Both the position numbers and the translations under genes were made by a program. The notes below the pieces were generated by a model. The model was not told the DNA's origin and did not search any database. It saw nothing but the letters and a program-made list of their open reading frames with translations. Below, one piece after another: positions 45,596-55,814 of a stretch of DNA of 64,000 bases; position 1 is the stretch's first letter, and every line of letters starts with the position of its first letter. The stretch is from Escherichia phage VEc33, in the sequence record NC_048818.1; one strand, 5' to 3'.

Positions 45596-45624
45596 ATTAT
45601 AATAGTATTAGAAAATTTTATCAA
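45596..45624 (-). promoter_or_regulatory. Sigma70-type promoter, minus strand (TTGATA, 17 bp, TATAAT), upstream of pb9-like gene
   Basis: Reverse complement of 45596-45624 reads TTGATA-N17-TATAAT. Confidence 0.55.
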
Positions 45625-45644
45625 GAAATTTTTATTTTTCCATA

Positions 45645-45671
45645 AAGAAAAGGAGGACTCAAAGTCCTCCT
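45645..45671 (-). terminator. Rho-independent terminator (minus strand) after tape measure gene
   Basis: GGAGGAC-loop-GTCCTCC; on minus strand followed by TTTTCTTTATGG. Confidence 0.6.
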
Positions 45672-45677
45672 CCAGTT

Positions 45678-48600
45678 TTAAGAATTTCCTAGTGTTTTTA
45701 GGCTAGCACCATTCTCATTCAGAGCTAATTCTACTGCATCCCTCAGAGCACCGCTATTACTAGAGGCGAACTCTCTAAAACTAGCAGCATCCATAGCACT
45801 AATATTCAGGATGATAGGTCTTCCTGAGGTTGAATTAGAGGAATTTTTTAACTCATCATTAGGTGTAGCTTTCATAGGAATCATAGGTGTAATTACTTCT
45901 GTACCATGTTCTCCCATCTGATAGCTAACCCCTGGGTACATATTACCACCTTCGGCACGCGGCACAAATGAATTAGCATTACCAATACCTTGATCACCAC
46001 GTACATAGGATAGTTCCCCAGCATTAGCAGACATAGATACATCAATGTTCTTCTGACGCTCTCCAAGAGTTAAATAACTAGTAGTATCCGCTCCAGAATC
46101 TGCAATACTTGACATACTAGAGGCAGAGGATGCCTGCGCTAATGCCAGAGCACCTGCTAATCCTGCCGCTACCATCAGAGGGATAGAGAACGGGTATGGT
46201 ACAGCTGTTGCTGCCTGCATAACTGCTACTGCAGTTTGGATGATAATCTGCTTCTTAGCTGCATCTTGTTGAATCTTCAGCTTTTCAGCTTCTAGCTTCT
46301 TCAATTTAGCTTTAGATGCTTCTGATTTACCATCACGTTTCTGCTCCGCTGCGATAGCTGCATCAATAGCACTAACCTGTTGACTAGTACTATACTGAAT
46401 CATAGAAGATACAGTTTGCATGCCAGAAGCAATCAAGGAGGTAGTATCTAGGGATCCCTGAGAGAACTGAATCATGGCGTTAGTTAAGTTACCCATACTT
46501 TGAGCCACAGCGGTTGCTTCAGAATTTAATTCAGATAGCTTAGAGATTGCCTGATCATAAGAAGCCATTCTATTTTGCATATCTGCAAAATCTTTGTCTT
46601 CCCCAGATAGTCCAGTTGTAGGAGTGTACACAGCACCCACAGAAGACCCTACCTGTTGCTGCATTTGGCCTTCTCTTTGCTTTCTAAGTTGCTCTAGAGC
46701 AGCAGCAGTTTTATAGATCTCATTACGATATTTGATCTCTTCTTCGGTATTGCCCTTAGATAGTTCTAGCTGTTCTTGCAAAACAGATAATCTTTCTGTA
46801 AGAATCTGGGCTTGGCCAGTAACATTTCTTTGTGTTTGGCTGACTTCTAATGCATCCATAAGAGCTGATACATGTGATGCAGTTGCCTGCTTCTCAGCCT
46901 CCCATAACTCCCGGCTTATTTGTGCTTGCGCACGTCTAGACTGTTCCGCCTCTTTCTGTTTGTCCGCTTGTTTTGTATACCATTCGTACTTCTCTTTCTC
47001 TACAGTTAGTTCTAGTTTTAGCTGAGCTAATCTATATTGAGTAGTAGTCATAGTACGGTCATTCAGAAGAGCTATCTCACGATCTACACCAAGAATTTTA
47101 TCTGTGTAATCCTTGACCTTCTTCTGAGCTTCCATACCCTGATTGGTAAGTTTAAGTTTCTCCAGCTGAATTTTTTCAATTTCTTTTTCAACAGCTTTAT
47201 TCCCCTGGTTTGTTTGAAGAACACGGCGTAAAGCAGCTTCTTGCTCTTCTAACTGTTGCAACTCTAAACGTCTACCAGCTTCCTGAGCCTTTTCCTTATC
47301 CTTAGTTTGATTATACACATCAGCTATTTTCTGTTGAACTGCTAATTGATTTTTAGTTTCATTACCAGTTAGTTTAACATACTCAGATAGAGCCTGAGAT
47401 GCAGTTTTCATTTCAGACAGGGTGTTATAGCCCAGGTTAAGGTTTTTAACATACTCATCGGCACTCTTACCAGTGCCTAAGGATAGAGATTCTATGTTTT
47501 TTATAGCATCTGCTAAAGTAGCACTAGTTTTAGCAGCAGTATCTGTATTCTGAGCAACGTTCTGTATATCATTAGCTAAGTCACTAGCAGTTTTCTTAGT
47601 TTGATTATATGCTTTCTGTTGTTCAGTTAGTCCTTTTAATACTGTGGAGTTAAAGTCATATACAGCACCAGGATCAGTAGTATCCCTCTGTAGATTAATC
47701 TGTTTTTGGAATTCTGGATTAGCTTTTGCAGCAGCAGCACCCGCAGCTTGATAGGCTGACTTCCAAGCATTAAGGTTTTCAGTAGAATCTTCTACTTCCT
47801 TACCTAGTCTGGTTACTTGTAGACCCATAGCCGCAGTTTCTTCTACGAACTTTTTATTAGCTTCGGAAGCACCAGCAGCAGCAAGACCAACAGGAATACC
47901 TTCACCAACTTGACGTATGGCTAATCTTGTATAGAAATCCGCTTGCTCCATTCGTTTATCGAATTCGGATTTTAGCTTATTACGCTTATCAAGAGATTCC
48001 TTATACATATCTAGAGCTTTATTATAACCTTCTTCAGAAGCGGCCAAACTTAAAGCAACAGCACCAACGTTGGTAGGATCTATCTGTCTATTGGTTTTTT
48101 CTTGAGCTCTAGCTGCTTCAGCAGATACAGAAGCCTGAGAAGTATAAAATACTGTGTTGATAGCATCAATTACCGGCCCTAAATACTTAGCAGCAGCCTG
48201 CTGAATCTTTCTCAGCGCGGCATCAGCATTAGCGGCAAATTGCTCCCATGGAGTAGCACGTAAAACTTCATCTAAGTAACCAAAACGTTTAGTAGACTCT
48301 GCTATAACAGCATTAGCATACGCTTGCTGTTTCTGGAAGGTAGTAAGGCTATTAATATTATACGTTATACCTGTGTTTGCAGCATTTAACTGTTTAACGT
48401 AATCAGCATAAGCATCATTAAGACGAATAGTAACACCAAGTTCATCCAGAAGTTCGATTTCCTGTTTAGATACACCCTTAATTACACGGTTAAGTGCATC
48501 AGTCATATCAACGCCAAGAACAGCAGCAGCACGACGAGCTACTAGACCAAATTTATTAAGTTGTTCAGCATCAAAACCGTATGCAGAAGCAGAGGATGCT

Positions 48601-49358
48601 TGTCTCATAGCTTCTTCAAAGGAAATAGCGTACCCGGCTGCTTCTTGTAGGGATCTAGCAAGGGACTGAACAGGAGTACCTGTCTGAGTACCTACTATAA
48701 CACCAAATTTTTCTAGACGATTTAGCTGATCACCTAACTTAAGTTGTTCGAATGCAGATTGCAAAACGAAGATGTTGGAAGCAAGAGCTGCATACATAAT
48801 AGGTAAACTACCACCTATCTTAGCCATTGCCGCAAAATCACGAGTTGCACCACGTGCTGAACCAGAAGTATTACCAATAGCTCTAGAAGCTCTGCCAGCA
48901 GCACCAGTAGTATCATTAAAGCCCTTAGTTGTACCACCTAAAGCTCTATTAGTATCGTATAACCTATCTTGAACTTTCTCTGTTGCAGCTGCAACATCAT
49001 TGCCCATTGTTTTAACAGATCTAGAAACTCCATCAAATCCAACTTCTAGTTTATCTGCTACTTCAATCATTGTAATAGCTAGGTCATCCAGCTTAGTCCC
49101 TATATCATTAATAGATTTAGTAATACCAAGCATGCCCCTACTAGCCTGCATTTTAGTAAGACTTTTTGCTGCTCTATCTGCTGCCCTCTCAATGGAGTAT
49201 AGAGTTTTGGGCATTTTACCTAACTGTTCATTCGTTAGCTCAGAAGCCGCAGCAGCATTCTCTAATGCATCAGATACGTTTTCAATAGACTTTGCAGTAC
49301 GAGTTGCCCCCTTCTGTTTAACGTCTATCAGTAATTCTCGTATTAGCTTATCAGTCAT
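45678..49358 (-). CDS. Tail tape measure protein (T5 pb2-like)
   Basis: 1226 aa, long coiled-coil, Ala/Gln-rich, hydrophobic segments near C-terminus; position between assembly chaperones and distal tail protein. Confidence 0.9.
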   Translation of the reverse strand: MTDKLIRELLIDVKQKGATRTAKSIENVSDALENAAAASELTNEQLGKMPKTLYSIERAADRAAKSLTKMQASRGMLGITKSINDIGTKLDDLAITMIEVADKLEVGFDGVSRSVKTMGNDVAAATEKVQDRLYDTNRALGGTTKGFNDTTGAAGRASRAIGNTSGSARGATRDFAAMAKIGGSLPIMYAALASNIFVLQSAFEQLKLGDQLNRLEKFGVIVGTQTGTPVQSLARSLQEAAGYAISFEEAMRQASSASAYGFDAEQLNKFGLVARRAAAVLGVDMTDALNRVIKGVSKQEIELLDELGVTIRLNDAYADYVKQLNAANTGITYNINSLTTFQKQQAYANAVIAESTKRFGYLDEVLRATPWEQFAANADAALRKIQQAAAKYLGPVIDAINTVFYTSQASVSAEAARAQEKTNRQIDPTNVGAVALSLAASEEGYNKALDMYKESLDKRNKLKSEFDKRMEQADFYTRLAIRQVGEGIPVGLAAAGASEANKKFVEETAAMGLQVTRLGKEVEDSTENLNAWKSAYQAAGAAAAKANPEFQKQINLQRDTTDPGAVYDFNSTVLKGLTEQQKAYNQTKKTASDLANDIQNVAQNTDTAAKTSATLADAIKNIESLSLGTGKSADEYVKNLNLGYNTLSEMKTASQALSEYVKLTGNETKNQLAVQQKIADVYNQTKDKEKAQEAGRRLELQQLEEQEAALRRVLQTNQGNKAVEKEIEKIQLEKLKLTNQGMEAQKKVKDYTDKILGVDREIALLNDRTMTTTQYRLAQLKLELTVEKEKYEWYTKQADKQKEAEQSRRAQAQISRELWEAEKQATASHVSALMDALEVSQTQRNVTGQAQILTERLSVLQEQLELSKGNTEEEIKYRNEIYKTAAALEQLRKQREGQMQQQVGSSVGAVYTPTTGLSGEDKDFADMQNRMASYDQAISKLSELNSEATAVAQSMGNLTNAMIQFSQGSLDTTSLIASGMQTVSSMIQYSTSQQVSAIDAAIAAEQKRDGKSEASKAKLKKLEAEKLKIQQDAAKKQIIIQTAVAVMQAATAVPYPFSIPLMVAAGLAGALALAQASSASSMSSIADSGADTTSYLTLGERQKNIDVSMSANAGELSYVRGDQGIGNANSFVPRAEGGNMYPGVSYQMGEHGTEVITPMIPMKATPNDELKNSSNSTSGRPIILNISAMDAASFREFASSNSGALRDAVELALNENGASLKTLGNS

Positions 49359-49381
49359 ATTTTATTTTTCCCAATAAAAAA

Positions 49382-49406
49382 GGCTCTGGGCAAATCACCC
49401 AGAGCC
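49382..49406 (-). terminator. Hairpin plus T-tract immediately upstream of the tape measure start codon
   Basis: GGCTCTGGG-loop-CCCAGAGCC; on minus strand followed by TTTTTTATTGGGAAAAATAAAATATG. Confidence 0.55.
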
Positions 49407-49441
49407 AAGCCTCATCGTGGAACGCCCATTGGAGGAAACTT

Positions 49442-49810
49442 TTATCGTGCACGAGATCTAGCATGTGGCTTAACGTTAGGAATCCTTCCGTTTTGCGGTT
49501 TATGCTTCTCAGCACGTTTACGTGCAGCATCTACAGCTTTAGCATCAAATATATTGATAATGTGTAGAACAAATTCTTTCTCTATAGGATCAGTAATCCC
49601 ATAAATATCAAATAAAACACCTAGAGCAGCCTTATCTTTACCTATAAAGATAGGAAAGTCACCTGGTATGAAGCAGTCAATTAGACTGTTATAAATATTC
49701 ATACTAATAGATACAATAGGTGGAAAATCTTCGAGTTCAACAGGCATAGCCTTAGGATCAGGTTCTATACCCATTGACTCACAAAGTATTAAATATTGTT
49801 GTTTGGTCAT
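49442..49810 (-). CDS. Putative tail assembly chaperone (downstream ORF of a possible chaperone pair)
   Basis: 122 aa, directly upstream of tape measure; its frame stays open upstream into the 3' end of the preceding ORF. Confidence 0.4.
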   Translation of the reverse strand: MTKQQYLILCESMGIEPDPKAMPVELEDFPPIVSISMNIYNSLIDCFIPGDFPIFIGKDKAALGVLFDIYGITDPIEKEFVLHIINIFDAKAVDAARKRAEKHKPQNGRIPNVKPHARSRAR

Positions 49811-49871: not shown

Positions 49872-50276
49872 TTACGCTTTTGGGCTACGAAAAGTGTCTA
49901 AGTGGAACACTGTCTGGTTGATCCAAGAATCAAACGCAGCAGAGTTCTGCATGAGCATTACAGCATTATCGCGGCTAAAAGGAACTTCAGTAGCAGGATC
50001 AGCATCTGTTTCAATCAGCATCAGTTTTTCAACGTCACCTACAGTCAAACCGGTCCAACCTTTAATAGCTGCGTCAACGAAGGCTTCAATGAACTTATCA
50101 TCATCCTGTACCTGAATCAAAGTACCATTAACCCATTCATCGCGTTTAGCAGAAGAAATAACACGTTTAGAGGTAGCACGAGACATATAGTTAAGTTCTA
50201 GTTTAAAGTTCGGCATACCCGGGTAGGAAAGAGTAATAGTACGAGTATCGAGAGTAATATCTTTTAAATTAATCAT
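49872..50276 (-). CDS. Putative tail assembly chaperone (upstream ORF)
   Basis: 134 aa, between a tail structural gene and the tape measure gene; acidic. Confidence 0.4.
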   Translation of the reverse strand: MINLKDITLDTRTITLSYPGMPNFKLELNYMSRATSKRVISSAKRDEWVNGTLIQVQDDDKFIEAFVDAAIKGWTGLTVGDVEKLMLIETDADPATEVPFSRDNAVMLMQNSAAFDSWINQTVFHLDTFRSPKA

Positions 50277-51176: not shown

Positions 51177-52583
51177 TTAACCACCAGCACTAACTGTGAT
51201 AGTTTTAGTACCTTCTACACCAGAACCGTCTTTAGCTACAGCCTTCACAGTAACTGCACCAGTTTTAGAAGCATCAGCTGTTAATAACCCAGATTCTGCA
51301 TCAATCGTAGCTGCGTTACCACTAGAAATAGACCAAGTTACAGCCTTATTAGTAGCTTCTGGAGGTGTTACCTCAACAGACATCTGTAAAGTATTACTAT
51401 TTGTTACAGAAACAGCCTCACCTGCCGATTTAACTGTAATGGATTTAACGGGAACTGGAGGAGTTTTAGCACCATCTCCGGTAGCAATTAGATTCGCTAT
51501 TGTAGTTTTGGTATACTTGTTAGAGAAGCCTAAGTATCCTTCGTCACCAGTATCCAAATCAGTAGGAATAGCTTTAAACTCTACTGAAGTACCAAGTACA
51601 TCATCAGTCTCAATAGTAGGGATGTTAACATGCGCCTGTTTAGCAACTAACACAGCTGCCGGTCGCTCATCATCGTATTCACCACCCAAAATAAGTGCAA
51701 TTTCAAAACGGTTAACTACCTTAAGGGTTTTGACAAGATCTTTGTACAGTTCCATAGAACCAAGAGACTTATCATTAAGGTATGCTGTCAAAGAACCCGT
51801 TAACTCAAACGCACCAGTAAATGAACCGATAGGAATATTTACACGTGACATAATATTCGGGGTTAGGTACGTGATGTTGTTATTAATGGTAAAAGTACCA
51901 CCAGTAATAGGAATATCATATGCCTTATCAGAATCCATATCCTTAATTTTTAGGATAGTTAACTTGTTCTTTATATAAGAACTCTGAATAGTCATATAGG
52001 TTTCATCATCAATACCTAATGCATCTGGATCAAATGGTTGGCTATCTAACGGGATGAGCTGATTACCATTACCAGACCAAGTTACACGACCAATATCCTC
52101 AATATCAACGTTAACTTCTGCCTGGTTGATCTGGCAAGAGTCAATATAGCTCCATGCTTTGTCAGTAAGAATGTAGATGTGCAGCATAGCCAACTCATGA
52201 TAAGAGTTATCTTTAAAGTTAACCATGAAATTAGCTTCATTATTATGCGCACCTGTGTCTCCCTCAAGGTTTAACGCTTTACCACTAGAAAGAGCATGCC
52301 ATAACATGTAGTCGGGAACAATCTGTTTATTAGAGGTTTTATCCTTGTATGGCAGGATATAAGTAGAAAAACTCCACTCAGCCGCATTCAAGGAATCGTT
52401 AAAACGTTTAGAACCACGAGTAGGACGCGGACCAGCTTCGTTAACAGTAATATCTGTTGAGTTACTGTCCTGACCCCAAGAAATATCATCCTGAACTAGA
52501 ATCTCTTGCGTGTTGGTCTTATCGTGACCAGTCTTAACCGTAGACACGAAGATTCGAGTATTACGTAATAGTTGTAAAGACAT
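51177..52583 (-). CDS. Major tail tube protein (T5 pb6-like) with C-terminal Ig-like domain
   Basis: 468 aa; C-terminal Big_2-like segment (KAVTWSISSGNAATIDAESGLLTA...VTVKAVAKDGSG). Confidence 0.75.
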   Translation of the reverse strand: MSLQLLRNTRIFVSTVKTGHDKTNTQEILVQDDISWGQDSNSTDITVNEAGPRPTRGSKRFNDSLNAAEWSFSTYILPYKDKTSNKQIVPDYMLWHALSSGKALNLEGDTGAHNNEANFMVNFKDNSYHELAMLHIYILTDKAWSYIDSCQINQAEVNVDIEDIGRVTWSGNGNQLIPLDSQPFDPDALGIDDETYMTIQSSYIKNKLTILKIKDMDSDKAYDIPITGGTFTINNNITYLTPNIMSRVNIPIGSFTGAFELTGSLTAYLNDKSLGSMELYKDLVKTLKVVNRFEIALILGGEYDDERPAAVLVAKQAHVNIPTIETDDVLGTSVEFKAIPTDLDTGDEGYLGFSNKYTKTTIANLIATGDGAKTPPVPVKSITVKSAGEAVSVTNSNTLQMSVEVTPPEATNKAVTWSISSGNAATIDAESGLLTADASKTGAVTVKAVAKDGSGVEGTKTITVSAGG

Positions 52584-52609: not shown

Positions 52610-53095
52610 TTATCTGCGAAGTGACCTACGTGGAGGCTGATACCTCACTGTTACATTTATTTCTGCTAAACCATATGGGGCCAGTAGACCCTCATCTGTA
52701 CTAACTGATGTAATGCTCATATCAGTCGCCTCACATGGGAAGGTCGATCCATTAGGTTTACTAACAGTATATTCTAAATTTCCACCCGTGTCAATAACGG
52801 TTTTTATATCCGCTACGAGTTTTTCAAGTTGCTCTTGAATGTCTGTTTTCTCTTTATCGTACACCAGGATTGGAAGTTCTAAAAACATCCACTGTTGGCC
52901 TGAAGGAAGATACTGCCCAGTTTCAGTTCCGATATGAACTGCAACATAAGGAAACTCTCGTATCTCCTCAAACTTATAAGTTTGACGTGAGACGTTTCCG
53001 TACAAGTTATTAAAATATTCATCTGGTTGAGAGCCATCCATTTGTTTGGCTATTCGGTCAACCAGAGCTTGTGCTATACTTGTTCTGTGATCCAT
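52610..53095 (-). CDS. Putative tail terminator protein
   Basis: 161 aa, position between head completion genes and the tail tube gene. Confidence 0.45.
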   Translation of the reverse strand: MDHRTSIAQALVDRIAKQMDGSQPDEYFNNLYGNVSRQTYKFEEIREFPYVAVHIGTETGQYLPSGQQWMFLELPILVYDKEKTDIQEQLEKLVADIKTVIDTGGNLEYTVSKPNGSTFPCEATDMSITSVSTDEGLLAPYGLAEINVTVRYQPPRRSLRR

Positions 53096-53098
53096 TTA

Positions 53099-53866
53099 TT
53101 AGGTTCCTTGATTAACCTTAATTTTGTATCTGGAGTGAATTAAGTCTCTTGCAGCTTTAGCTATCGCCTCTCCAATTAATCTTTGAGGGTTTCTAGCACC
53201 TGGGTAGGGTCGTAATGACAATCTTCGATATGTAGATACTGCAGGGTTAAATACGGAATATGGACGTACCATATAATTATATGTAACATTTAATTCAGGA
53301 GCACCTTTGCTAGTTCCAGCATCTCTAAGCATAACATCTTTAACTTTTAGGGAATTTGCAAAACGACCTGTTCTAAATTTAAGTGGAGCTCCTGCTTTTT
53401 TCATATCCTTTATTAAGTATTCTTTGGCAACCAACTCCAGAATAACCTTCATATTACTATTTGATACAAAACGACCAGAAGCACCTGTTACTGCACCAGA
53501 ATATCCATCTTCTACGTCTCTAGGATCACCAAAGTTTACCTGTACCCTACCAGTAGAACGTTTTTTACCTACGGAGGATTTTTTACCGGCAGTTGCCTGT
53601 ATGAGACTTTCTAAAGCCCCTAAATCTCCAGAAAGATCCAAGCTAGAGGATACAGCTTTTAGAATAGAGGCTGTCCTAACACTAAGGAGATCCTGTGATA
53701 CCGGTTTTGAGAATTTAAAAGATACTTGAGCAACAGTACCATCTCTAGTGGGATCTTTTAATCCTGTTTCAACAGAATATACAACAGTATTCTTATTATT
53801 CTCGGAACGCCCAACATTATCTAGCTGCTCCTTAATAATTTGTGTAGCTAAATCAGAAAGAGACAT
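53099..53866 (-). CDS. Hypothetical structural protein (head or tail completion)
   Basis: 255 aa, in the late operon between capsid and tail genes. Confidence 0.45.
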   Translation of the reverse strand: MSLSDLATQIIKEQLDNVGRSENNKNTVVYSVETGLKDPTRDGTVAQVSFKFSKPVSQDLLSVRTASILKAVSSSLDLSGDLGALESLIQATAGKKSSVGKKRSTGRVQVNFGDPRDVEDGYSGAVTGASGRFVSNSNMKVILELVAKEYLIKDMKKAGAPLKFRTGRFANSLKVKDVMLRDAGTSKGAPELNVTYNYMVRPYSVFNPAVSTYRRLSLRPYPGARNPQRLIGEAIAKAARDLIHSRYKIKVNQGT

Positions 53867-54378
53867 TATACTCTCCTGTAAACTTCAATAATAGTACGAA
53901 TATGCTCTGGAATACCAGACTTAGTATTATTAAAAGTAACTGTTTCTCCGCCAATTGTTTTAGCTTGACGGTAATCCTGTTTATGCCAATGATCTACTAG
54001 CATACATGCTGCAAGTTTGAGATCTTCAGGAATTGGGTTAAATCCACCTTGTGTGTACTCTACATCCATATAACCTTCTGGAGGATTAAATTTAAGAAGT
54101 ATAACCCCATCAGAGTACAACTTATACTGTTCGGGATCTATCTCCTTATCATTAATAGTCATTTTGGTTACTGAAGTAGCTGAGGGAGAACTTAAAAAGT
54201 ATTTTTTACGAGTAGGTTTTGTATTGATTAACTGGTCTACCGCATCAGCATCATCCATACCTAAAAGGCTAGTAATCAGCGCATTGGCAGCAGTAATCAT
54301 CATCTCTACTCCAGATTCTAGTTCCGGTCGTTTTAACCCGCCGTATAATCTATAGTCTTCAGCTGTGATTATTTGCAT
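53866..54378 (-). CDS. Putative head completion / head-tail adaptor protein
   Basis: 170 aa, immediately downstream of the major capsid gene. Confidence 0.45.
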   Translation of the reverse strand: MQIITAEDYRLYGGLKRPELESGVEMMITAANALITSLLGMDDADAVDQLINTKPTRKKYFLSSPSATSVTKMTINDKEIDPEQYKLYSDGVILLKFNPPEGYMDVEYTQGGFNPIPEDLKLAACMLVDHWHKQDYRQAKTIGGETVTFNNTKSGIPEHIRTIIEVYRRV

Positions 54379-54396
54379 TTATTTTTCCCAATAAAA

Positions 54397-54418
54397 AAGG
54401 AGAGCCGAAGCTCTCCTT
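54397..54418 (-). terminator. Hairpin plus T-tract just downstream of the major capsid gene
   Basis: AAGGAGAGC-TTCG-GCTCTCCTT; on minus strand followed by TTTTTTATTGGGAAAAATAAATG. Confidence 0.6.
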
Positions 54419-54437
54419 ATCGGCTGAAAAGCCTGTA

Positions 54438-55814
54438 TTAAGCGGTAGCGTAAGCACCGGATACAACACCATTACTAAAGTAACGTTGCAGGTTAACACG
54501 CTGAGTAACGTAGTATGCATCACGCTGTTTACCAGCTTGGCGCTCACGTTCAACAGTAACAGCACGCTGGCGTGGCATTACGAAGTTATCTTTATAAACA
54601 ATAACTGCGAACTCTTTCTCAGCTGCTTTAGCTGGGAAGTACTCAGAAACTACAACCGGCAGACCATAAATACGACCAACCTGACCTTGCAGTTTAACAG
54701 CATCGTTACCAACCTGTGCAACATCCTGCCATTCTTCATCTTCCAGAAGATCATAGTAAGCATCCATAGATACGATAAGTACCAGTTTGCTCAGTTTCAG
54801 ACCATGACGGCCCAGTTTACGACGCAGTTTAGAGATAGTTTTAGCAGTTACCAGAACAGAACCATCAGCTTTAGCTTCAGTAGTAACTTTAGCACCATCA
54901 TCTTCAGCCAGTTTCAACAGACCTTTCGGCTTACCAGTACCATCACCAGTCATAAAAGCTTCTTCGATAGAAACAGCGTGTGCTTCAATCAGACGCTTAC
55001 GCAGCAGCGGTAGCAGGGAGAAGATTGCATCTTCTTCAGTTTCATCAGTAATGAAGGACTTAGCAGCTAGTTTGTAGGTTTTAAAACTAATTTCAGTTAA
55101 TGTACCTTTAACTTCGTTACCAACAGTAGCATCAGTACCGTAGGAACCAGCATCTACCCAAGTAGCTTTTCCAGCTTCAGGCTCAACCAGCATAGTAAGA
55201 ATTTTGCTGGACATCGGCAGTTCATCAAACAGTGCACCAACTACTAACTCTTTCTGCAGGTCACGAAGGATACGGGTAGAGAAAATAGTTTCGTAGTTTT
55301 CACTGGAAACCTGTACAGAGGAAGAAGTATTAACAGCTTTAACGTGGGCTTTACCATGTTCAGTTTCAAATACATCCTTCTCCATCATATAAGACAGGAG
55401 AACTAGTTTTTCAACTTCATCTTCAAAAGCTTCCTGAGTACCATACAGTGCTTTAGCTACGCTATCACCGACGAAGGAACGACCTTCACGAGCTGCTAGC
55501 AGAGATTTAATTTCATCCTGAAGACCAACAATGGTTTCCTGCTGCTTTTCTACAGTCTGTGCGAACAGTTCTGCGCTCTTTTTAGATTTTTCATCCAGGG
55601 ACTTAACCAGTTCCAGAGCTTGTTCCAGTTTCTGACGATCTTCGCCAACTGCTTTAGAAACCAGGTCATTCATACGAGCCAGTTCTTTTTCTTCCTGCTC
55701 TTTACGCATACGTTCAGCTTCCTGAGCTTTCTGAGCAGCGGTCAGACCTTCCAGAGATTTAGCCAGATCACCCAGACCAAGTTCTTCTTTCAGCTTATTA
55801 ATATCAATAGTCAT
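54438..55814 (-). CDS. Major capsid protein, HK97 fold, with N-terminal scaffolding (delta) domain
   Basis: 458 aa; N-terminal ~150 aa charged coiled coil, then HK97-like body; follows the prohead protease gene. Confidence 0.88.
   Translation of the reverse strand: MTIDINKLKEELGLGDLAKSLEGLTAAQKAQEAERMRKEQEEKELARMNDLVSKAVGEDRQKLEQALELVKSLDEKSKKSAELFAQTVEKQQETIVGLQDEIKSLLAAREGRSFVGDSVAKALYGTQEAFEDEVEKLVLLSYMMEKDVFETEHGKAHVKAVNTSSSVQVSSENYETIFSTRILRDLQKELVVGALFDELPMSSKILTMLVEPEAGKATWVDAGSYGTDATVGNEVKGTLTEISFKTYKLAAKSFITDETEEDAIFSLLPLLRKRLIEAHAVSIEEAFMTGDGTGKPKGLLKLAEDDGAKVTTEAKADGSVLVTAKTISKLRRKLGRHGLKLSKLVLIVSMDAYYDLLEDEEWQDVAQVGNDAVKLQGQVGRIYGLPVVVSEYFPAKAAEKEFAVIVYKDNFVMPRQRAVTVERERQAGKQRDAYYVTQRVNLQRYFSNGVVSGAYATA

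Follow-up and report, generated by a model that had tools for sequence, protein, structure and literature searches.

What two nearly identical short sequences do between a hairpin and a start codon is the question raised by two junctions in the late region of a T5-like phage, one before the tape measure gene (site 1) and the other after the major capsid gene (site 2). The stretch analysed here, referred to as the window, comprises 64,000 nucleotides of Escherichia phage VEc33 (NC_048818.1). Its minus strand carries the late structural genes (T5-like, Tequintavirus), and this late region shares 85-98% identity with that of hundreds of T5-like phages (Tequintavirus and Epseptimavirus; Demerecviridae). 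The best explanation for the two junctions, with a probability of roughly 0.7, is partial termination combined with weak initiation at two intrinsic terminators of the late operon.

The late genes follow the order capsid, head-completion/adaptor, tail completion, tail terminator, tail tube, minor tail, two tail-assembly-chaperone ORFs and tape measure; all features described below lie on the minus strand. The major capsid gene (54438-55814) encodes a 458-aa homologue of pb8 (phrog_10, E 6e-51) and ends with a TAA stop codon at 54440-54438. It is followed by the gene for the head-completion or head-tail adaptor protein (53866-54378), a 170-aa homologue of T5.148 (phrog_442, E 5e-50). The tail tube gene lies at 51177-52583 and the first chaperone ORF, which matches the phrog_313 profile, at 49872-50276. 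The second chaperone ORF (49442-49810), a 122-aa homologue of T5.142, matches phrog_3914 as well as positions 170-258 of phrog_313, and its stop codon lies 35 nt upstream of the site-1 hairpin. The tape measure gene (45678-49358; ATG at 49358-49356) encodes a 1226-aa homologue of the pore-forming tail tip protein pb2. Within the tail-terminator gene, 183 nt upstream of the start of the tail tube gene, a sigma-70-type promoter (TTGACA-17-TATACT, 52766-52794) is the counterpart of the annotated T5 promoter P-J5, and a transcript from it would traverse the tail tube, minor tail and chaperone genes to reach site 1. Downstream of the tape measure gene, a third terminator-like hairpin (45673-45649), annotated as a terminator in HASG4, and an AT-rich stretch are followed by a strong near-consensus promoter (TTGATA-17-TATAAT, 45624-45596). 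The likely transcription units are thus one running from the head genes through the capsid gene to the site-2 terminator, one that starts at the P-J5 counterpart, covers the tail tube, minor tail and chaperone genes and stops at the site-1 terminator, and the tape measure gene up to the third terminator.

The sequence common to the two junctions is a 21-mer, TTTTTTATTGGGAAAAATAAA, present in exactly two copies at 49361-49381 and 54378-54398. Allowing up to three mismatches still yields just these two matches in 64 kb, against an expectation of 0.01, and two or more matches appeared in 0 of 100 shuffles; the pair is therefore not a product of chance. Looser versions of the motif revealed no further copies over the 64-kb window, and exact matches to the 21-mer in a public viral collection come from T5-like genomes only, with at most two copies per genome, located about 5 kb apart. 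At site 1, the hairpin GGCTCTGGGT-GATTT-GCCCAGAGCC (49406-49382) is followed by the 21-mer, the dinucleotide AT and the tape measure ATG. At site 2, the capsid TAA is followed by 19 nt, the hairpin AAGGAGAGC-TTCG-GCTCTCCTT (54418-54397) and the second copy, whose first two T residues also close the stem and whose last A is the A of the head-completion ATG. The stems differ between the sites, and the common part is restricted to the T-run and the next 14 bases; the ATG lies 14 nt from the T-run at site 1 and 12 nt at site 2. This minus-strand reading, together with the exact two-copy 21-mer, confirms the preliminary description of the window, which had noticed nearly the same hairpin-then-ATG sequence at two late junctions. 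The immediate succession of shared sequence and ATG that it also described holds as an order at both sites but not as direct abutment, given the overlap at site 2 and the extra AT at site 1. The presence of AAGGAGAG within the second stem, likewise described, is borne out, this sequence being the 5' arm of the site-2 stem. A ribosome-binding role for AAGGAGAG was rejected, since no start codon lies at a usable distance and a natural variant alters it together with its pairing partner. A promoter reading of GGGAAAAATAAA was also discarded, as it has no usable -35/-10 arrangement downstream and a transcript starting there would miss the ATG.

Both hairpins have the form of textbook intrinsic terminators. 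In RNA, the site-1 hairpin GGCUCUGGGU/GAUUU/GCCCAGAGCC (49382-49406) consists of 10 bp with a 5-nt loop, and the site-2 hairpin AAGGAGAGC/UUCG/GCUCUCCUU (54397-54418) of 9 bp closing on a C(UUCG)G tetraloop; the U-run UUUUUUAUU lies directly 3' of the stem at both sites. A scan of 20 kb for terminator-like structures ranked site 1 first and site 2 fourth. The predicted folding energies are -19.1 kcal/mol for site 1 (z -5.4 relative to shuffles) and -14.7 kcal/mol for site 2 (z -4.4), the d'Aubenton-Carafa-type d-scores are positive (43 at site 1; 15-34 at site 2), and the T-run scores range from 3.8 to 4.8. Across an alignment of nine genera or lineages, the site-1 stem shows compensatory changes in 5 of its 10 pairs with 96.7% of cells paired, a level reached by 0 of 500 shuffles and by no slid control. 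At site 2, the stem and loop are identical except for the outermost pairs in Tequintavirus, Epseptimavirus, Sugarlandvirus and the Serratia, Proteus, Providencia and Pectobacterium phages, and a natural variant in close relatives (AAAGAGAGC/GCTCTCTTT) changes both sides of one pair. The evidence for structural selection at site 2 is thin, as its stem barely varies among enterobacterial phages; in Vibrio phages, unrelated hairpins with U-runs occupy the same junction. Taken together, the two sites possess the stem, the U-run and, most clearly at site 1, the conservation of structure over sequence that characterize intrinsic terminators. Public annotations agree: site 1 is annotated as a putative rho-independent terminator in the T5 RefSeq record, HASG4, Spivey and Slocum, and site 2 as a terminator in the T5 RefSeq record, HASG4 and Spivey. 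The earlier terminator call is thereby upheld as a prediction by anatomy, scan ranks, energies, scores, annotation and site-1 covariation, for hairpins of a known kind already annotated in T5 and its relatives. A bidirectional terminator was excluded, because the plus strand has no T-run at either site. A literature search returned no transcript 3'-end mapping, RNA-seq coverage step or reporter data for T5-like phages.

The region between U-run and ATG appears to constitute a weak translation start. At site 1, the 21-mer (49361-49381) comprises the U-run, a weak Shine-Dalgarno sequence GGG(A) and an A-rich spacer, and the copy at 54378-54398 has the same composition up to the A of the head-completion ATG. 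Both sites have in common the 14 nt that follow the U-run, AUUGGGAAAAAUAA, and AUU, GGG and AAAAAUAA are parts of this shared start region. Within it, the Shine-Dalgarno core of UUGGGAAAAAUAA is limited to three bases, GGG (in some genera GGA), and the spacer is A-rich and 8-11 nt long. Most neighbouring late genes carry GGAG or GGAGG about 7-10 nt before their ATG, and UUGGGAAAAAUAA precedes only the tape measure and head-completion genes; such a weak shared Shine-Dalgarno sequence fits the low copy number of their products. Predicted folding of the start regions is weak (-2.7 and -1.5 kcal/mol) and does not surpass that of shuffles. An AU hairpin that would place the Shine-Dalgarno sequence in its loop (UUUAUU-GGGAAA-AAUAAA) was rejected, its energy of -1.5 kcal/mol not exceeding that of shuffles in stability and the pairing not being kept in other genera.

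Relatives were sampled in two ways, by homology to the head-completion protein, which introduces no motif bias, and from annotated records of other genera; Aeromonas phage AhP_Mru1 was left out owing to its fragmented gene calls. Of the close relatives picked by protein homology, 23 of 28 carry the exact 20-mer at the capsid junction and 22 of 27 at the tape measure junction, and the non-exact versions mostly involve changes in T-run or A-run length. The arrangement of a hairpin, TTTTTTATTGG(G/A)(A/T)AAAAT and ATG is found at both junctions in Sugarlandvirus, two Serratia phages, Proteus Novosibvirus and Providencia Priunavirus, with further deviation in the Proteus phage at site 1 and in the Pectobacterium phage at site 2. 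The site-1 copy persists with minor alterations in Sugarlandvirus and in the Serratia, Proteus, Providencia and Pectobacterium phages. Site 2 of Providencia phage PSTCR5 carries an identical 40-nt sequence, AAGGAGAGCTTCGGCTCTCCTTTTTTATTGGGAAAAATAA, spanning hairpin and 20-mer, next to a head-completion protein of only about 30% identity. When the window is compared with Spivey, Kamaji, Proteus M4H10_20 and PSTCR5, the intergenic modules are 73-83% identical and 150-nt stretches of the adjoining coding sequence 49-71%; among enterobacterial Demerecviridae genera, the modules of both junctions are thus better conserved than the genes beside them. A perfect, uninterrupted U6 follows each stem in all enterobacterial-host genera. 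Vibrio phages keep only the generic plan of hairpin, U-run, ordinary Shine-Dalgarno sequence and ATG, which they also have at a third junction; these extra junctions of hairpin, U-run and ribosome site before the tape measure gene show a recurring design of the family. Homopolymer length appears to be the main form of natural variation at both modules. As separate observations, one relative has a site-2 T-run of 13 T, and ATTATTAGG replaces ATTGGG in two others.

Partial termination followed by weak initiation would account for this arrangement as follows. Terminators for the host RNA polymerase would act within the late operon after the capsid gene and again after the block of tail tube and chaperone genes, each joined directly to the translation start region of the gene behind it, whose protein is made in low copy. 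Most transcripts would end at the U-run, giving abundant capsid and tail tube messages protected by the hairpin, and the few polymerases that read through would provide the only route to the head-completion and tape measure genes. On the read-through RNA, AUUGGGAAAAAUAA would serve as an unstructured ribosome-binding region with a weak Shine-Dalgarno sequence, so that output would be lowered a second time in translation. The geometry supports the read-through step: the 12-14 nt between U-run and ATG leave no room for a separate promoter, and thus the downstream genes must be reached by read-through. Consistently, a 20-kb scan detected no promoter-like site between U-run and ATG at either site, and the tape measure and head-completion genes, which we take to be essential, lie downstream in the same orientation without their own promoter, as expected of an attenuating terminator within an operon. 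From the anatomy, covariation, conservation and geometry of the sites, we infer that termination takes place, that it is incomplete and that translation from the shared start is weak. In the virion, the capsid protein is present in hundreds of copies and the head-completion protein in about a dozen, the tail tube protein in about 120 and the tape measure protein in a few; expression would therefore step down exactly at the two places where virion copy number falls sharply. The ratio-setting attenuation proposed in the preliminary description would in this manner separate abundant from scarce proteins. The likeliest reason for the close resemblance of the two copies is tight packing, with U-run, Shine-Dalgarno core and A-rich spacer accommodated in about 20 nt, so that almost every base would be constrained and both sites would settle near one optimum.

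Four features sit less easily with partial termination and weak initiation. T5 late transcription relies on a host polymerase modified by the phage (PMC10644984), which may behave differently at terminators. Terminators usually drift in sequence, and the 40-nt identity of site 2 in PSTCR5, at about 30% identity of the flanking protein, would seem to exceed the obvious needs of packing and counts against that part of the model. The attenuation model does not account for a conserved 35-nt element before site 1, described below. Furthermore, in T5 the endonuclease gene T5.141 is inserted at site 1 right after TTTTTTATT, and the tape measure gene starts behind ACAGGAAAACATTAG. T5 is viable without the site-1 14-mer; the exact sequence is therefore dispensable at that site, and its loss would count against a need for precisely these bases.

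An alternative, considered unlikely, is that the hairpins mainly protect mRNA 3' ends or mark sites of processing. Read-through would then be nearly complete, cleavage would occur in the AU-rich stretch behind the hairpin (for example by RNase E), the hairpin would guard the capsid and tail tube messages against 3' exonucleases, and differential RNA stability would set the ratio of products. The stems are indeed very stable, one of them with a C(UUCG)G tetraloop, and stable hairpins of this type are common between T4 cistrons. A second small hairpin upstream of each terminator and the AU-rich single-stranded stretch directly downstream of the hairpin would also suit protection and processing, as would the dependence of T5 late transcription on a phage-modified host polymerase to which phage factors are bound (PMC10644984). 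The conserved U6 after each stem speaks against this interpretation, since it is the defining feature of a terminator and would be superfluous for a stability hairpin; in addition, cutting inside the ribosome-binding region would inactivate the downstream message. The small stem-loop at site 2, GGCU-UUUC-AGCC (54422-54433), is located between the capsid stop and the terminator hairpin. Its GGC...GCC pairing is kept in Spivey, Kamaji, PSTCR5, DU_PP_V and the L069 variant, with the fourth pair being U-A or A-U, an observation made by eye that constitutes weak evidence.

A small probability is also retained for a sequence-specific factor or RNA function, on account of the unexplained 35-nt element and the 40-nt identity at site 2. 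The roughly 85-nt tape measure junction would then be a family-wide cis-regulatory RNA device rather than a plain terminator, with site 2 as a second sequence-specific instance. It would be made up of UUUCCUCCA after the stop codon, GGGCGUUCCACGA, a small hairpin that may form, the terminator and, last, the weak ribosome site. The element in question (49407-49441) is non-coding and extends from the chaperone stop to the site-1 hairpin, with UUUCCUCCA at 49438-49430 and GGGCGUUCCACGA at 49427-49415, followed by UGAGGCUU ((U)GAGG). It occurs once per genome, is nearly invariant in the enterobacterial-host genera except for the Pectobacterium phage, in which GGGCGUUCCACGA is much diverged, and remains recognisable as far as the Vibrio phages Thalassa and PVo5. 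A coding interpretation, based on a 59-codon ORF (49351-49530; FLQWAFHDEAW) whose TGA overlaps the tape measure ATG, was rejected: a GGG/GGGG indel separates close relatives, 1-nt indels separate genera, and these length changes are not offset in any consistent way. A small hairpin is possible (CCUC...GAGG with UGG...CCA). This upstream hairpin (P1) was dismissed as a significant structure, as it is predicted in most genera but has z values of only -0.8 to +0.4 relative to shuffles.

Several forms of regulation through this element were considered and discarded. Masking of the tape measure ribosome site by an anti-Shine-Dalgarno sequence was rejected, since the UCCA:UGGG pairs proposed by RNAalifold are invariant or changed on one side only; the cognate masking duplexes (-3 to -7 kcal/mol) are no better than non-cognate ones (permutation p = 0.99). 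An antiterminator formed by UGGGC (5 nt) with the 3' arm of site 1 is not kept when that arm changes in Spivey, as judged by eye. Folding of the junctions yielded no helix competing with the terminator, and an Rfam search of the module returned only a noise match (E 1.7, far below the gathering score). A regulated attenuator or riboswitch was rejected on these two results, and nothing in the sequences of the two junctions indicates regulated rather than constitutive read-through at either terminator.

One version of the RNA device would draw on the chaperone ORFs. The second ORF lies in the +1 frame of the first in all ten Demerecviridae genomes checked, and its reading frame continues upstream without a stop into the last part of the first ORF, with an overlap of 23-119 nt that always includes UUU-CG(U/A) in these ten genomes (49872-49897 in the window). 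The second ORF has no Shine-Dalgarno sequence, and in the 258-position phrog_313 chaperone profile the first ORF corresponds to positions 12-139 and the second to positions 170-258. These features suggest a conserved candidate +1 programmed frameshift (UUU to UUC slip) that would yield a G-T-type fusion; a genome announcement reported that no frameshift signal was predicted in T5 or Sugarland (PMC6256483). The second ORF, which directly precedes site 1, may encode the T part, produced only rarely, of a G/GT-type pair. If the frameshift is correct, this ORF is rarely translated, which weakens the earlier premise of an abundant chaperone before site 1, already doubtful for an ORF that has no Shine-Dalgarno sequence, lies in the +1 frame in 10 of 10 genomes and matches only the C-terminal part of the profile. 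Under the device interpretation, tape measure synthesis may be tied to the rare ribosomes that finish the +1-frameshifted chaperone fusion, in which case the numbers of tape measure and chaperone would be matched. Alternatively, the terminated 3' end may be released as a small RNA with a CCUCC seed.

It is improbable that the shared sequence serves as a recognition site that co-regulates both genes, whether for a translational repressor, the loading of an antiterminator or an endoribonuclease. Such a role could explain 14 identical bases past the U-run at two sites only, conservation above that of coding DNA across genera, and the identical module in PSTCR5, but it is difficult to reconcile with T5, in which the endonuclease gene splits the site-1 copy and tape measure translation begins from another start region. 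Moreover, altered A-run and T-run lengths are tolerated in relatives, as are GGA for GGG and T for A; the corresponding places in more distant family members hold ordinary Shine-Dalgarno sequences of dissimilar make-up, and no Rfam family matches.

Origin as a duplication relic or maintenance by recombination or gene conversion, with the 14-mer a functionless linker, is very improbable: both junctions are indeed module boundaries (head/connector; tail tube plus chaperones/tape measure) that accept free-standing endonuclease genes in some relatives, but variants are not shared between sites in Spivey, Kamaji, Proteus, PSTCR5 and DU_PP_V, indicating no concerted evolution, neutral sequence would not outlast coding DNA in conservation, and a crossover between direct repeats 5 kb apart would cost the phage essential genes. 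Spivey, for example, differs between its two sites, one having GGGTAAAAT and the other GGAAAAAAT, a pattern that is reversed in Kamaji; such independence within a genome indicates that the copies are not homogenised by gene conversion and share a common constraint. The data already point to purifying selection acting on each site independently.

The closest known counterparts are the terminators of T5 itself (NC_005859) at 101563-101586, after D20-21/pb8, and 96553-96587, after T5.142, which are orthologous, occupy the same positions and have the same or nearly the same sequences; T5 differs in that its site-1 module is interrupted by T5.141. The annotations in T5, HASG4, Spivey and Slocum are predictions and mention neither the common start region nor its conservation across genera; the shared weak start region and its family-wide conservation, as read from the sequences, are modest new details. 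Partial termination behind the major capsid gene has a precedent in T7, in which incomplete termination at T-phi after gene 10 (major capsid) feeds the less abundant structural genes. A strong terminator right after the major capsid gene has likewise been described in LUZ100 (PMC10134795). The resemblance lies in the position immediately behind the capsid gene, whereas the T7 and LUZ100 terminators act on phage single-subunit polymerases, are not fused to the next ribosome site and have no duplicate with a common start region; those of the window have the form recognized by the host multisubunit polymerase.

C(UUCG)G hairpins were reportedly described in T4 intercistronic regions by Tuerk et al. 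in 1988, and the site-2 stem is similar in ending on C(UUCG)G and in its position between two cistrons of a lytic coliphage; in contrast, site 1 has an ordinary 5-nt loop, and both window hairpins carry a full U-run. T4-type phages are also said to contain promoter-stem-loop cassettes (PeSL; Arbiol et al., 2010), which resemble the present module in that one phage genome employs a regulatory sequence repeatedly, at several of its gene junctions. PeSLs, however, occur in many copies with a promoter, variable flanking genes and shuffling. A PeSL-like mobile cassette was therefore rejected for the module, which has only two copies in the window and no more than two in any related genome, no promoter, and core structural genes at its flanks. 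Leader-peptide attenuators, riboswitches and the lambda N/Q systems also let read-through of an intrinsic terminator decide downstream expression; the window junctions share this logic but showed no conserved antiterminator pairing, leader peptide or known RNA family.

Attenuation as a principle is textbook knowledge and both terminators had been annotated before, which limits the advance to matters of detail. Nevertheless, attenuation stacked on a weak ribosome site offers a testable picture of how late-operon expression could step down in T5-like phages, and the compact, unusually conserved 45-nt module of terminator and start could serve as an attenuator part in the engineering of T5-like phages or E. 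coli.

A look-alike exists outside the family. In the unrelated Pseudomonas phage EM (Pakpunavirus), a stop codon is followed by GGGAGC-UUCG-GCUCCC, a T-run, CATTGGAGATAAAAA (including CATTGGAG) and ATG, which suggests that the compact design of terminator plus ribosome site can arise convergently.

Both junctions are insertion sites of free-standing endonuclease-like genes in some relatives. In T5, such a gene lies between the site-1 T-run and the tape measure ATG, and in NR01, SP3 and a metagenome phage, the insertion falls between the capsid stop and the site-2 hairpin and consists of a gene of about 200 aa that brings hairpins of its own.

Behind the tape measure gene (45596-45673), the third hairpin, GGAGGAGGAC-UUU-GAGUCCUCCUU, is followed by an interrupted T-run, TTATGGAAAAATAAAAATTTC and the TTGATA-17-TATAAT promoter. 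The A-rich stretch there resembles the shared 14-mer but is placed where an upstream promoter element would be.
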